A stretch of 64,000 nucleotides of DNA. Source: an uncultured bacterium (GTDB taxonomy: Bacteria > Verrucomicrobiota > Verrucomicrobiia > CAIQCK01). The translations under genes and the position numbers were made by a program. Under the pieces are notes generated by a model. It worked only from the letters and a program-made list of their open reading frames with translations. It made no database searches and was not told the origin of the DNA. This document shows, piece after piece, positions 24,582-26,999 of the stretch; the first letter of the stretch is position 1, and every line of letters starts with the position of its first letter. Location of the stretch: positions 3,819-67,818 of the forward strand of contig CAIQCK010000103.1 of the NCBI GenBank assembly GCA_903870275.1, given 5' to 3'.

Positions 24582-25829
24582 ATGGCAGAGGGACGACGGG
24601 TAGTCATTACAGGCATGGGCGTGGTTTGCTCGCTCGGGCAGACCATTGATGCCTTCTGGCGCGCGCTGATCGCCGGCGAGACGAAGGTGGACCGCATCAC
24701 CGCGTTCGATCCGACCGCCTTCGACTGCCAGATCGCCGCCGAGGTGCGCGACTTCAACGCCGCGCCGTTCTTCAACATGCCGAAGGACGCGCGCCGCAGC
24801 GACCGCAATATCCAGTTCGGCGTCGCGGGCGCCAAGCTCGCCGCCCAGGACTCCGGCCTCGATTTCTCCAAGGAAGACCTCGACCGCGCCGGCTGCTGCA
24901 TCGGCTCCGGCGTCGGCGGCCTTTCCACCTTCGAGCAGCAACACTCGATCCTCCTCCAAAAAGGCCCCTCGCGGATGTCGCCGTTCACCATCCCGATGAT
25001 GATCGGCAACATGGCCAGCGGCATCGTCTCGATGGAGCTGGGCCTGCGCGGGCCGAACTTCGCCCCTGTCAGCGCCTGCGCCACCAGCAACCACGCCATC
25101 GGCGAAAGCGCCCGCAACATCCGTCTTGGCGATGCCGACATCATGGTTGCCGGCGGCACCGAGGCCACCATCCTGCCCACCGGCATCGGCGGCTTCGCGG
25201 CCATGAAGGCCATGAGCACCCGCAACAGCGACCCCAGGCACGCCAGCCGCCCCTTCGACAAGGACCGCGACGGCTTCGTCATGGGCGAAGGCTCCGCCGT
25301 CGTTGTGCTGGAGGAACTCGAGCACGCCAAAAAACGCGGCGCGCGCATCTACTGCGAAGTCGTCGGCTACGGCCAGACCGCCGACGCGTATCATATCACC
25401 TCCCCTGCCCCCGGCGGCGCGGGCGCGGCCCGTTGCATGAACAACGCCCTCAACAACGCCGGCCTGCGGCCCGACCAGATTTCCTACATCAACGCCCACG
25501 GCACCTCCACCGAACTGAACGACAAGTACGAGACCGCCGCCATCAAGACCGTCTTCGGCGAGCACGCGAAGAAAGTGGCCATCAGCTCCACCAAGAGCAT
25601 GACCGGCCACATGCTCGGCGCCGCCGGTGCCATTGAGATGATCGCCTGCGCCATGGCCATCACCCACGGCATCATCCCGCCGACCATCAACTACCAGACG
25701 CCCGATCCCGAGTGCGACCTCAACTACACGCCCAACACCGCGCGCGAGTTGAAAGTGGACGCCATCCTCAACAACGCCCTCGGCTTCGGCGGCCACAACT
25801 GTTCGCTCGTCGCCAAGCGGTTTGTGTAA
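24582..25829 (+). CDS. fabF: beta-ketoacyl-ACP synthase II FabF
   Basis: VVITGMGVV, active-site [40 protein letters not shown] and [15 protein letters not shown]. Confidence 0.97.
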
Positions 25830-25958
25830 GCGCCTTCCCGGGAGCGCGGGCATCCTGCCCCCCGACGTTCACGCGCAGGCGCAGCCAGTTAGAAGGCGGT
25901 TGATGGAACCGTCTCTGTTGCGACCACTTTTTTTATCCATACTTTATTCGAACGCAGC

Positions 25959-26792
25959 ATGCAATTTACCATCGTCACACCCAGCTTCAGGAATTCTTCC
26001 TGGCTTAAGCTGTGCATCGCCTCGGTGGCCGACCAGGGTGTGGAGGCGGAACACATCGTCCAGGACTCCTGCTCCGATGACGGCACGCAGGACTGGCTGC
26101 CGCACGACTCCCGCGTCATCTCCGTCATCGAAAAGGACACGGGCATGTATGACGCGGTCAACCGCGGATTCCGCCGCGCACGGGGGGAATTGCTGGCCTA
26201 TCTCAACTGCGACGAACAATACCTTCCCGACGCTTTGCGCAAGGTAAGCCGTTTCTTTGACCAGCATCCCGGCGTGGACGTGATTTTCGGCGACACCGTG
26301 ATCGTCGGCCCCCAGGGCGAATACATCTGCGAGCGCCGCGCGCTCCTGCCCCATCGCCTCCATACCCTCATCAGCATGAACCTGAGTTTCCTCACGGCCG
26401 CCACCTTCATGCGGCGGCGGGTTTTTCATGAACTCGGACTCCACTTCGATCCAAGCCTGCGTGACGTGGGCGACGCCGAATGGACACTCCGTTTGCTCAA
26501 GGCTGGAGTGCGCATGGCGACGATGAAAGAATTGACCAGCGCGTATACGGAGACAGGAACCAACATGAGCCTCGGCCCGAATATGGCTCGCGAACGGGCT
26601 GTCTTCGCCCAAACCGCCCCGCTGTGGGCGCGCACACTGGCCCCGTTCCTCGTGGCCTATTTCCGGTCCCGCCGATGGCGCGCGGGGCATTACCGCTGCC
26701 AACCGCATTCGTATGTCATCTACACCAAGGACGGCCCCAACGAGCGAAAGCTCTTCCAAGCGAACCAGCCGACCTTCCGATGGTCGCGGTGA
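25959..26792 (+). CDS. glycosyltransferase family 2
   Basis: MQFTIVTPSFRNSSWL...EHIVQDSCSDDGT...DTGMYDAVNRGFRRARGELLAYLNCDEQY, the classic GT2 N-terminal half. Confidence 0.85.
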   Translation: MQFTIVTPSFRNSSWLKLCIASVADQGVEAEHIVQDSCSDDGTQDWLPHDSRVISVIEKDTGMYDAVNRGFRRARGELLAYLNCDEQYLPDALRKVSRFFDQHPGVDVIFGDTVIVGPQGEYICERRALLPHRLHTLISMNLSFLTAATFMRRRVFHELGLHFDPSLRDVGDAEWTLRLLKAGVRMATMKELTSAYTETGTNMSLGPNMARERAVFAQTAPLWARTLAPFLVAYFRSRRWRAGHYRCQPHSYVIYTKDGPNERKLFQANQPTFRWSR

Positions 26793-26845
26793 CCCGTCAG
26801 AAATCACGACGAAGCACGCAACCCTTGATATGACCGCCCTTCTTC

Positions 26846-26886
26846 GCTGTAGCGGCGGTCTCCAACCACCGAGCTGTTCATTATCA
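26846..26886. repeat. truncated REP-like element (type A, left arm plus loop only)
   Basis: gctgtagcggcggtctccaaccaccgagctgttcattatcaa matches the left arm and loop of the complete hairpin at 27059-27130. It stops exactly at the junction with the fabF fragment. Confidence 0.75.
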
Positions 26887-26999
26887 ACCTCAACTACACG
26901 CCCAACACCGCGCGCGAGTCGAAAGTGGACGCCATCCTCAACAACGCCCCCGGCTTTGGCGGCCACAACTGTTCCCTCGTCGCCAAGCGGTTCGTGTAG
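26887..26999 (+). pseudogene. duplicated 3'-terminal fragment of fabF (last ~37 codons plus stop)
   Basis: A 113-bp ungapped match to 25717-25829, offset exactly 1170 bp, with 6 mismatches. It encodes [36 protein letters not shown]. There is no in-frame start, because a TAG lies at 26850-26852 upstream. Confidence 0.85.

Follow-up and report, generated by a model that had tools for sequence, protein, structure and literature searches.

A glycosyltransferase gene between two copies of the fabF 3' end: the scar of a recombination-driven gene gain in Verrucomicrobiota

The window, a 64-kb stretch of DNA from an uncultured bacterium of the phylum Verrucomicrobiota, contains an intact fabF as the final gene of a conserved fabG-acpP-fabF block. 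Between fabF and an ankyrin-repeat gene lies an intact GT2 glycosyltransferase gene, with a copy of the fabF 3' end on either side (Table 1). FabF is 95% identical at the amino acid level to that of the closest relative (L097) and 92% identical to those of L089 (GCA_041667205.1) and L091 (GCA_049297475.1). The GT2 protein is not truncated, all 107 columns that are invariant in its family are retained, and its DDG and CDEQY motifs are invariant across nine homologues. In NCBIfam it had generic GT2 matches only, with no equivalog at its cut-off. The GC3 of the gene (0.78) is typical of the window. Its nearest homologues are at most 70% identical, and the three nearest are found in contexts unrelated to one another and to fabF; around the homologue in the genome L095 there are REPs only and no flanking gene-fragment repeats. 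Matches on plasmids and phages do not exceed 36% identity. The ankyrin gene was recognized by its Ank Pfam matches, and its leader is conserved in L089, L091, and a further relative known from a fragment (L101). The GT2 and ankyrin protein clusters comprise sequences of this population alone. An Rfam scan of positions 24400-27400 gave sub-threshold miRNA-model noise on the REPIN palindrome and nothing else, and a terminator scan found no convincing terminator 3' of fabF. Transcription of GT2 probably comes from read-through of the fab operon or starts in the short, AT-richer leader of the gene itself.

Table 1. Features of the fabF-ankyrin locus, in positions of the 64-kb window.
Feature	Position	Strand	Evidence
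fabF (beta-ketoacyl-ACP synthase II), intact, 415 aa	24582-25829	+	Pfam PF00109, PF02801
Copy 1: functional fabF 3' end, TAA stop and 2 nt	25717-25831	+	Repeat search, alignment
fabF downstream flank, native-type, with C-motif GGGAGCGCGGGCATCCTGCCC (25840-25860)	25832-25876	+	
Spacer, including a 39-nt stretch of 41% GC right before the GT2 start	25877-25958	+	
GT2 glycosyltransferase, 277 aa, intact, acquired gene	25959-26792	+	PF00535, E = 1.2e-16
REP-A singlet (GTAG head and degraded hairpin GGCGGTC-TCC-AACCACC) and most of the REPIN spacer	26845-26886	+	
Illegitimate joint, REPIN-A spacer to fabF codon 379	26885-26888	.	Alignment of both contexts
Copy 2: displaced non-functional fabF 3' fragment, 36 codons, TAG stop and 2 nt	26887-27001	+	
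10-nt linker, then REP-D left arm and loop (GTAGCCGCCGACGTAAGGAGGCGG...), right arm missing	27002-27057	+	
Full REPIN-A palindrome: two inverted REP-A units, 26-nt arms, 20-nt spacer	27059-27130	+	
Ankyrin leader (...CGTGACTTC...CTTCTGGTAGAAACGCCGCC...) and ankyrin-repeat gene (27200-29605), right native flank	27131-29605	+	

The two copies form a direct repeat of 115 nt with 95% identity, and identity starts two bases upstream of the reported repeat, with the AC at 25715 and 26885. Intragenic HEAT repeats aside, this pair is the sole dispersed direct repeat of at least 60 nt in the window, and it is far beyond chance. A preliminary description, made from the sequence alone, had reported that the last 113 bp of fabF recur at an offset of 1,170 with six substitutions and no indel. 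The repeat search and the alignment agree with this, and a codon comparison of the 113 coding bases gave the same two non-synonymous changes and the same change of stop codon: TTG>TCG (L>S), CTC>CCC (L>P), TTC>TTT, TCG>TCC, TTT>TTC, and TAA>TAG. Its statement that copy 2 has no start codon does not hold, as an in-frame GTG is present at 26925, though this would encode only 24 aa; the list of open reading frames contains none of at least 40 aa ending at 26999. The changes are unevenly distributed. Four belong to copy 2, two of them non-synonymous, and the L>S and L>P replacements hit positions that are invariant in 18 relatives. The two specific to copy 1 are silent, being synonymous (25823) or stop-to-stop (25829). 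With two non-synonymous changes at invariant residues, against synonymous ones alone in copy 1, copy 2 is the non-functional copy. It is the displaced original fabF 3' end, decaying as a pseudogene fragment.

The synonymous distance between the copies (dS 0.12) can be set against that between the window and L097 (dS 0.25). At 25754 and 25802 both copies have derived states that are absent from all relatives, and the copies are therefore each other's closest relatives. Other characters conflict: TCG at 25805 unites copy 1 with L097, REP-D unites copy 2 with L097, and AAA and TGT unite copy 1 with copy 2. The same flanking-duplication signature was not found at three other lineage-specific insertions (22616-23402, ~10683-12621, and ~14697-18138), and it is therefore not a general habit of this genome.

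The sequences behind the two copies differ in origin. Copy 1 is followed by TAA, about 10 nt, and the C-motif, matching L089 and L101. The flank with this motif, which contains a small hairpin (GGGCA-TCC-TGCCC), has its homologous sequence directly behind the stop codon of fabF in L089 and L101, and 95 nt past the stop in L097. The C-motif occurs once in the window and is therefore not a dispersed repeat matching by chance. Beyond the flank, local alignment of positions 25877-25958 with the fabF-ankyrin spacers of L089, L091, L097, and L101 gave nothing significant. The 1,057 bp between the copies had been described as a GT2 gene with an AT-rich upstream region. GT2 is indeed the only gene there (834 bp), but about 47 bp (25830 to ~25876) are native flank and 42 bp (26845-26886) are REP sequence. 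The upstream region does contain an AT-richer part, though this amounts to the 39-nt stretch listed in Table 1, in which the promoter scan found no sigma-70-type match.

REP-A and REP-D show the features by which REPs and REPINs are known: a GTAG head, a GC-rich hairpin, inverted pairs, and repetition in the genome. The REP-A unit consists of GTAGC and GGCGGTC-TCC-GACCGCC, and in the window it is confined to the fabF-ankyrin locus. REP-D occurs as a full inverted pair (REPIN-D) at 4421-4490 and as a half at 27010-27033. Both REPs also occur in L091, L097, and L095. L091 has an ortholog of the full REPIN-A palindrome, placed between its fabF and ankyrin genes (alignment score 173). The preliminary description had placed a truncated REP-A element at the joint, and this element was identified by comparison with the full palindrome: the half REP-A (26846-26871 and spacer) is 89% identical over 44 nt to the left half of REPIN-A 213 bp downstream (26845-26888 against 27058-27101). 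The joint itself reads ATCAAC/CTCAAC (26886/26887), with the full REPIN-A spacer for comparison at 27085-27104. A TCAAC microhomology had been proposed here. TCAAC is present once on each side, and the true overlap of the inferred parents, with the donor spacer taken from the resident REPIN-A, is the 2-nt AC (REPIN spacer ...ATCAACAAC against fabF ...GCGACCTCAAC).

Apart from the generic risk of metagenome assemblies, nothing speaks for a collapsed or chimeric repeat, and an assembly artefact is practically excluded. A 2.6-kb region is 100% identical in contigs of ERZ27313164, ERZ27313066, ERZ27313068, and JGI 3300022555, one contig pair differing by a single SNP at 25845. A Logan contig of ERR4195937 runs from inside copy 1, across GT2, to inside copy 2. 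The same base-identical structure was thus obtained in at least five independent metagenome assemblies and from three pipelines (MEGAHIT-style ENA contigs, JGI, and Logan). Moreover, the copies differ at six positions, and the 115-nt repeat is shorter than the k141 of the contig names, presumably the final assembly k-mer. The insertion state is fixed in the sampled population.

Comparison with related genomes, which the preliminary description had proposed as a check, revealed the empty site. The useful relatives came from a protein search and the cluster listing, whereas a FabF scan of the genome collection gave at most 67% identity among the matches listed. In L089 and L091 the order is fabG-acpP-fabF-ankyrin-GT4-GT9, with no GT2, and in the L101 fragment fabF is likewise followed by REPs and the ankyrin gene. 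Outgroups (FabF 77-80%) have other genes after fabF and no GT2. The fabF tail is single-copy, at the end of fabF, in L089, L091, L097, and L101. Synteny is collinear on both sides of the insert, and the gain is therefore limited to this segment. The lineage of the window has gained 1,170 bp between fabF and the ankyrin gene, and the earlier view of the locus, as a scar left by an insertion or by recombination with fabF preserved intact, is borne out. The added segment consists of a fabF 3' end, the native-type downstream motif, about 970 bp without counterpart at this locus in relatives, which carry the intact GT2, and one REP-A unit.

The flanks identify which parts are native. Positions 26889-27060 align ungapped (86.6%) with the fabF 3' end, TAG, 10 nt, and REPIN-D of L097, and REPIN-A and the ankyrin leader align continuously with L091. 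Excising one repeat and the insert restores a native allele, in which the 5' part of fabF, copy 2, and the downstream sequence match L097 and L091. Copy 2 and all sequence to its right form one native allele, and a different native allele follows copy 1. Each copy has its own native-type flank, matched in each case by another relative, and this points to recombination between two alleles or to a trimmed tandem duplication; an insertion of unrelated DNA into fabF appears less fitting. A scan of metagenome DNA with the fabF-tail pattern returned eight loci, with L101 as the one new informative relative and with neither a donor nor an empty allele of the same species. Sliding-window distances and quartet site patterns against L097, L089, and L091 gave no foreign tract or breakpoint in fabF, a test to which a donor barely diverged from the recipient would stay invisible; in the quartet patterns the window groups with L097 along the whole of fabF, copy 1 included.

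Mobile elements were also considered. The 10 kb to the left and right of the insert and the larger open reading frames of the window show no integrase, transposase, or RAYT domain, in agreement with the earlier statement that no recombinase was seen. Since the GT2 ORF takes up 834 of the 1,057 bp, there is no room for a decayed integrase. The word cassette, if meant as a self-contained mobile unit, finds no support, as terminal inverted repeats are lacking and nothing resembles an att or attC site besides the generic REPs. A transposon or insertion sequence was rejected based on the lack of inverted repeats at the insert ends and on a duplication of 113-115 bp, against an expected target-site duplication of 2-14 bp. 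An integron gene cassette was rejected as well: the window has no integrase, its sole palindromes here are REP units found elsewhere too, and cassette insertion does not duplicate 113 bp. What the locus does have is an insert between direct repeats whose sequence the empty allele contains only once, as in Campbell-type integration. It also has a substitute 3' end and a displaced end at the distal border, as in e14/icd, with the DNA past the substitute tail being native-type.

The best explanation, to which we give about an even chance, is a homology-anchored insertion of DNA from a related strain carrying fabF and GT2, either by a single crossover of a recircularised fragment or by an HFIR-type event. 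In the window REP-A occurs only at this locus, which suggests that the REP-A linked to GT2 and the resident REPIN-A are allelic counterparts, and the donor would therefore have carried GT2 at the same locus. The donor allele would have read fabF-TAA-C-motif-GT2-REPIN-A, with GT2 already behind fabF in a related strain, and the recipient would have been the empty allele fabF-TAG-REP-D-REPIN-A-ankyrin. In the first route, a linear fragment from the interior of fabF to the REPIN-A spacer would be end-joined into a circle of ~1.17 kb. Closure would create the joint with its 2-nt overlap, and one RecA-type crossover in the shared fabF tail would integrate the circle in Campbell fashion. In the second, HFIR-type route, which has the same outcome, the event would be homologous on the left, in fabF, and illegitimate on the right, where the join would fall 113 bp upstream of the recipient's stop codon. 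The palindromic REPIN probably supplied the break point, and a dedicated recombinase is not needed for the insertion. The character conflicts would be natural for recombining alleles, whereas a purely in-situ history would require homoplasy. A homology-anchored insertion leaves the arrival of GT2 behind fabF in the donor itself unexplained. Neither a donor-type allele nor a same-species empty allele is among the sampled sequences, and no donor tract is visible inside fabF, both of which count against the insertion of a second allele; the 2-nt overlap, below the typical 3-10 bp, counts against HFIR in particular.

The main rival is a tandem duplication in situ, later trimmed by deletions, which we regard as possible but rather doubtful. 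In this lineage a clean insertion would first have placed GT2 between REPIN-A and the downstream motif of fabF. Sister chromosomes exchanging illegitimately, or a template switch in replication, would then have joined the REPIN-A spacer to codon 379 and duplicated a unit of 1,170 bp. Later deletions would have taken GT2 from the second unit (leaving the REP-D/REP-A joint at CCGC) and REP-D from the first, so that 113 bp of the second unit survive. The two derived substitutions common to both tails and found in no relative, together with the absence of a foreign fabF tract, favor this route. One tandem duplication would also account for both repeat pairs, the fabF tail and the REP-A left half, and the copies have diverged to a degree that decay since a single event could produce. 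In Salmonella, tandem duplications are known to be joined at REPs, which also counts for the in-situ route. Against this route, a duplication and two deletions make a minimum of three events, and by coincidence these would have to yield two distinct fabF downstream alleles that both look native. The linker behind copy 1 (GCGCCTTCCC and C-motif) is unlike the product of REP-D excision from an L097-like ancestor; otherwise REP-D must have been inserted independently 10 nt past the stop in both copy 2 and L097. Homoplasy at 25805 is required as well. Between this route and the insertion of a second allele the event counts are about equal, and the two derived sites fit duplication in situ equally well.

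The remaining explanations are far less probable. The anatomy of the locus, with an intact gene whose tail is replaced, an insert, and a displaced C-terminal fragment, is that of icd-e14-icdC, and a site-specific integrative element with a replacement tail could have entered the fabF 3' end and later lost its integrase and the rest by deletion. This is improbable: there is no integrase in the regions scanned, the 1,057-bp insert leaves no space for element remnants, copy 1 is followed by native fabF-downstream sequence in place of element DNA, and GT2 has no close relatives on phages or plasmids. Slightly less credence still is given to a mobilisation associated with REPs, in which a tyrosine transposase (RAYT) or hairpin-processing nucleases would have cut at the REPIN-A spacer and the C-motif hairpin and moved GT2 as a REP-bounded unit (C-motif hairpin left, REP-A right), the fabF tail being co-mobilised or duplicated at the target. 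Every rearrangement joint at the locus falls at a REP-type hairpin: the novel joint precedes the second REP of a REPIN by 3 nt, the foreign DNA begins just past the C-motif hairpin, and the REP-D/REPIN-A joint at 27057/27058 and the L097 inversion breakpoint are also at hairpins. Both REP-A and REP-D bear a GTAG head in their sequence, which we take to be typical of RAYT-recognised REPs. On the other side, REPs occupy most intergenic spacers, so that their presence at joints is partly expected; the open reading frames scanned in the window include no RAYT (Y1 transposase) domain, there is no second GT2 unit anywhere and no GT2 homologue above 70% identity, and Y1 transposition does not duplicate 113 bp of target. 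If true, the REP-bounded GT2 would be a natural example of gene capture and transfer by a REP/REPIN system. Least probable of these is that the arrangement is ancestral to the clade and that the two fabF-tail repeats recombined homologously in the relatives, with loss of GT2. A deletion of this kind would be scarless and restore a perfect empty site, and empty sites alone would thus not be decisive. At least four independent losses (L089, L091, L097, and L101) are needed, along with absence in the outgroups, and no sampled relative has a GT2 above 70% identity. In addition, the dS between the copies is about half of that between the window and L097, and the duplication is therefore younger than that split.

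The locus is a clear but ordinary scar of recombination-driven gene gain, of a known kind, and reveals neither a new mechanism nor a new kind of element. When a single gene enters a chromosome without the machinery of a mobile element, its scar seldom survives, and descriptions from uncultivated phyla are almost non-existent. At this locus the two joints, the empty site of the relatives, and the displaced gene tail can be read together. On the homology-anchored reading, the locus would document how recombination anchored in homology, with an illegitimate joint at a REP palindrome, added a functional gene beside an essential operon in Verrucomicrobiota, and it could serve as a useful worked example of how natural populations gain genes and of the fragility of REP sites. 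A further consequence would be that recombination between the repeats, in deleting GT2, would mostly leave the essential enzyme FabF with L>P or L>S. A milder proposal, made alongside the REP-mobilisation reading, is that the decayed tail may thereby act as a lock, which would stabilise the acquired GT2.

Several known systems resemble the fabF locus in part. With a laboratory plasmid conjugated into E. coli, 56 of 60 integrants had a duplication of 109-950 bp of the homologous locus around the insert, which arose by a single crossover of the recircularised fragment (Amarir-Bouhram et al., 2011; PMC3240628). The fabF locus shares with this Campbell-type integration a direct duplication of the carried homologous part (here 113-115 bp), a single new illegitimate joint within the insert that shows hardly any homology or none, and independence from a dedicated recombinase. 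Unlike the experiment, the fabF event is natural, old, and fixed, its joint lies in a REPIN palindrome, its related-strain donor is inferred, and the circle is hypothetical. The same paper summarises HFIR in the naturally transformable Streptococcus pneumoniae, Acinetobacter baylyi, and Pseudomonas stutzeri, where classical HFIR combines insertion with deletion and a junction homology of 0-10 bp; three of four E. coli HFIR joints had no homology (PMC3240628). As in HFIR, homology anchors one end (in fabF) and the other end is illegitimate; about 1 kb of foreign DNA was gained, and the anchor gene stayed intact. However, classical HFIR deletes or replaces recipient DNA, whereas the fabF locus duplicates it, and the overlap of 2 nt is below the usual microhomology of 3-10 bp.

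A second parallel is the integration of e14 and phage 21 in icd, with the displaced icdC fragment in E. coli K-12 (PMC13626634; see also Hill et al., 1989). The prophage e14 measures 15 kb, encodes an integrase of its own, and has a defined att core, whereas the fabF insert is 1 kb long, has no recombinase, and shows native DNA behind the replacement tail. In both, an essential or central metabolic gene keeps its function through a new 3' end supplied by the incoming DNA, and the old 3' end is kept beyond the insert as a pseudogene fragment with few substitutions. REP-mediated duplications in Salmonella and REPIN-RAYT systems form the third comparison. The former recombine REP with REP, while here a REPIN spacer is joined to coding sequence; and unlike the latter, the window has no RAYT in the open reading frames scanned, leaving the REPs, on present evidence, as a fragile site only. 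What the locus has in common with them is the presence of inverted, GTAG-headed REP pairs in the spacer, with the joints in or beside them.

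The final 113 bp of fabF and the two bases past its stop (copy 1, 25717-25831) are repeated at 26887-27001 (copy 2) with an offset of 1,170 bp. The duplication claimed in the preliminary description was found to be real, with 95% identity over 115 nt, no indels, and six differences between the copies (L to S, L to P, three synonymous changes, and TAA to TAG). Identity between the copies begins 2 bases further upstream, at AC. Leaving aside HEAT repeats within a single gene, this pair is the sole dispersed direct repeat of at least 60 nt in the 64 kb. In the HEAT-repeat gene (55800-57043) the DNA repeats with a period of 93 nt, over at least 10 units. 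An assembly duplication had been raised as a concern. The 2.6-kb structure was found to be base-identical in contigs of five independent assemblies from three pipelines, with a single SNP (25845) in one contig pair, and a short Logan contig spans from inside copy 1 through the GT2 glycosyltransferase gene to inside copy 2. These results confirm the duplication and, for practical purposes, rule out an assembly artefact.

Features of the fabF-ankyrin locus (window positions)
Feature	Position	Remark
fabG	23455-24198	
acpP	24235-24492	
fabF	24582-25829	
GT2 glycosyltransferase gene	25959-26792	
REP-A unit and most of REPIN spacer	26845-26886	right border of insert
REPIN-A, full palindrome	27059-27130	
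ankyrin-repeat gene	27200-29605	
GT4 gene	downstream of ankyrin-repeat gene	minus strand

For this uncultivated Verrucomicrobiota bacterium, the best FabF identity in the species-representative genome collection was 67% among the matches listed, and a large protein collection contained FabF relatives at 95%, 92%, and 77-80% identity. Two of the 92% relatives have long contigs, L089 (GCA_041667205.1) and L091 (GCA_049297475.1). Both show the order exbB-exbD-exbD-fabG-acpP-fabF-ankyrin-GT4-GT9-kinases and are collinear with the window on both sides, minus GT2. In L101, a metagenome fragment, fabF likewise adjoins the ankyrin gene, so that the arrangement which the preliminary description had proposed to look for, fabF directly before the ankyrin region, is seen in all three. 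No GT2 was found after fabF in the 77-80% relatives, where different genes are present. The closest GT2 homologue found anywhere is 70% identical, and the three nearest lie in neighbourhoods unrelated to one another. The empty site in relatives, together with homologues of at most 70% identity in unrelated contexts, indicates that GT2 was gained in the lineage of the window. This gain is limited to the 1.17-kb stretch that separates fabF from the ankyrin leader.

The GT2 gene is full length, keeps all invariant positions of its family, and has a GC3 of 0.78, typical of the window. It matches generic GT2 models only, and no close relatives were found on phages or plasmids. In a further assembly of the same population (ERZ1426818), GT2 was called as two ORFs of 69 and 200 aa, with P0001 100% identical to the latter over the 200 aa. 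This could reflect a nonsense or frameshift variant or an assembly error; a true variant would make GT2 dispensable.

The most informative result is that each copy of the fabF tail is followed by a distinct native flank. Copy 2 and the following 61 bp align without gaps to the fabF end of L097 (86.6% over 172 nt), the closest relative (FabF 95% identical in amino acids and 92.5% in nucleotides). In both, the TAG stop and a linker of 10 nt lead into a REP-D unit with a GTAG head. The window retains just the left arm and loop of this REP-D, which abut the full REPIN-A (an inverted REP pair). REPIN-A and the ankyrin leader form one unbroken alignment with the sequence between fabF and the ankyrin gene in L091 (score 173 vs a shuffle maximum of 25). 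From these alignments, copy 2 and the right flank represent the native, vertically inherited 'empty' allele with its fabF body cut off. Copy 1 ends in TAA, and ~10 nt further on comes GGGAGCGCGGGCATCCTGCCC with about 15 nt more. This sequence is also present downstream of the fabF stop codon in L089 and L101, and just past REP-D in L097; since the motif is single-copy in the window, orthology and not a dispersed repeat accounts for the match. In L101 (oriented ~130-330), the C-motif, a native hairpin motif after fabF, forms both arms of a ~150-bp inverted-repeat element between fabF and the ankyrin gene, of which the window (25840-25860), L089 (11266-11290), and L097 retain the left arm alone. 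The L089 spacer contains an additional palindrome (GAGTGAAGAGTGAAAAGTTAAGAG...), a relative of which lies at 29605-29674 in the window.

DNA without a counterpart at this locus in relatives extends only from ~25877 to ~26845. Between the REP-A at the right border of the insert and the left half of the resident REPIN-A, located 213 bp downstream, identity is 89%, and REP-A was found at no other place in the window. The novel joint reads ...TTCATTATCAAC followed directly by CTCAACTACACG, and the parental contexts are the intact REPIN-A spacer (...ATCAACAAC-CGGCGG) and intact fabF (...GAGTGCGACCTCAACTAC). The TCAAC microhomology previously placed here is incorrect, because TCAAC occurs once on either side of the joint and not once at the crossover; the overlap common to both parents is AC only. 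The palindrome's second REP hairpin has its foot 3 nt from the break, which is plausibly a fragile site.

The histories of the copies were polarised against L097, L089, L091, and L101. Two derived bases are common to both copies (AAA at 25754 and TGT at 25802). Copy 2 has four private changes, of which two are non-synonymous and affect residues that do not vary among 18 relatives, and copy 1 has one synonymous change and TAG to TAA. Synonymous divergence, calculated from small numbers, is 0.12 between the copies, vs a whole-gene value of 0.25 for the window and L097. The copies split roughly halfway along the branch since the L097 split, and copy 2 has been decaying since. The groupings conflict: 25805 joins copy 1 with L097, REP-D joins copy 2 with L097, and the two derived bases join the copies. 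Quartet analysis of fabG-acpP-fabF found no foreign tract, with 52 sites grouping the window with L097 throughout vs 16 and 19 for the other groupings.

The ankyrin-repeat gene beside the insert differs greatly in length among relatives: it encodes 801 aa in the window, 248 aa in L089 (11432-12178), and 446 aa in L091 (11407-12747), with conservation limited to the leader and first codons; its GC3 (0.59) is well under the values of its neighbours. A sigma-70-like promoter 5' of fabG (23412-23439; TTGACA-16 nt-TAGGAT) is conserved with hardly a base changed across the window, L089, L091, and L097. Between exbD and this promoter lies a second lineage-specific insertion of ~0.78 kb (22616-23402), absent from the same three relatives. 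Its two ORFs, 22718-22912 (64 aa) and 22903-23349 (148 aa), have no Pfam or NCBIfam matches, and no duplication flanks it. Segments ~10683-12621, which carries an unrelated GT2 gene (11623-12369, minus strand), and ~14697-18138 are absent from L089 and L091, and neither is flanked by direct repeats. L097 (4800-10810) shows an inversion or rearrangement with its breakpoint directly 3' of fabF, where about 1 kb of repeat-rich non-coding DNA is followed by the MutS region, which in the window is located 20 kb upstream. Both ends of the rearrangement carry REPIN-D copies (window counterparts 4421-4490 and 27010-27033), which suggests that it was REP-mediated.

When a circular molecule carrying a homologous segment enters the chromosome by a single crossover, the classical outcome is an insert with that segment directly duplicated on either side. 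The donor allele, circle, and crossover type that we infer are as follows. A related strain would have carried fabF-TAA-C-motif-GT2-REPIN-A, and a fragment of it spanning fabF codon 379 through the REPIN-A spacer would have been circularised by end-joining at the 2-nt overlap. The circle would then have crossed over in the 113-bp tail of an empty recipient (fabF-TAG-REP-D-REPIN-A-ankyrin). Alternatively, the same product would result if the exchange was homologous on one side only and its right end joined illegitimately, 113 bp before the stop codon. Taken as one family of explanations, homology-anchored insertion by either route has about an even chance of being correct. The insertion, the empty site, both native flanks, the joint, and the decay of copy 2 are observed at the locus. 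In agreement with the preliminary description, no recombinase was found within 10 kb on either side or in the larger ORFs of the window.

A tandem duplication in situ, in which a 1,170-bp unit was doubled through the same illegitimate joint and trimmed by two deletions, would account for the repeated fabF tail, for the repeated REP-A half, and for the derived bases common to both copies. However, three events would be needed that by chance recreated two different native-looking flanks, as well as either an imprecise loss of REP-D or a second, independent gain of it at an identical position, and we regard this as a possible but rather unlikely history. The anatomy formally matches a decayed integrative element of the e14/icd/icdC type (PMC13626634), but this is improbable given the lack of an integrase, of spare room in the insert, and of close phage or plasmid relatives of GT2, and the native sequence behind the substitute tail. 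Mobilisation by a REP-associated tyrosine transposase (RAYT), at which the position of all joints at REP hairpins is the sole hint, is very improbable, and slightly more so is an ancestral arrangement repeatedly lost, which requires at least four losses and is at odds with how recently the copies diverged. Judged by their defining tests, a transposon, an integron cassette, and an integrase-bearing island were rejected.

In E. coli given a fragment with one homologous end, 56 of 60 integrants duplicated 109-950 bp of the homologous locus, via recircularisation and then a single crossover (PMC3240628). Classical homology-facilitated illegitimate recombination (HFIR), with insertion and deletion, accounted for only four of the 60, and HFIR joints in competent species show microhomology of 3-10 bp, which most of those in E. 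coli lack (PMC3240628). Repeat crossovers upstream of the L to P codon would remove GT2 yet damage FabF, and may thereby stabilise the acquired gene. The locus works in the same way as Campbell-type or HFIR-type homology-anchored insertion, although classical HFIR deletes recipient DNA whereas here it is duplicated, and it is similar to icd/icdC in outcome. It is a well-preserved natural case of a known event type in a poorly studied phylum, rather than a new kind of element.
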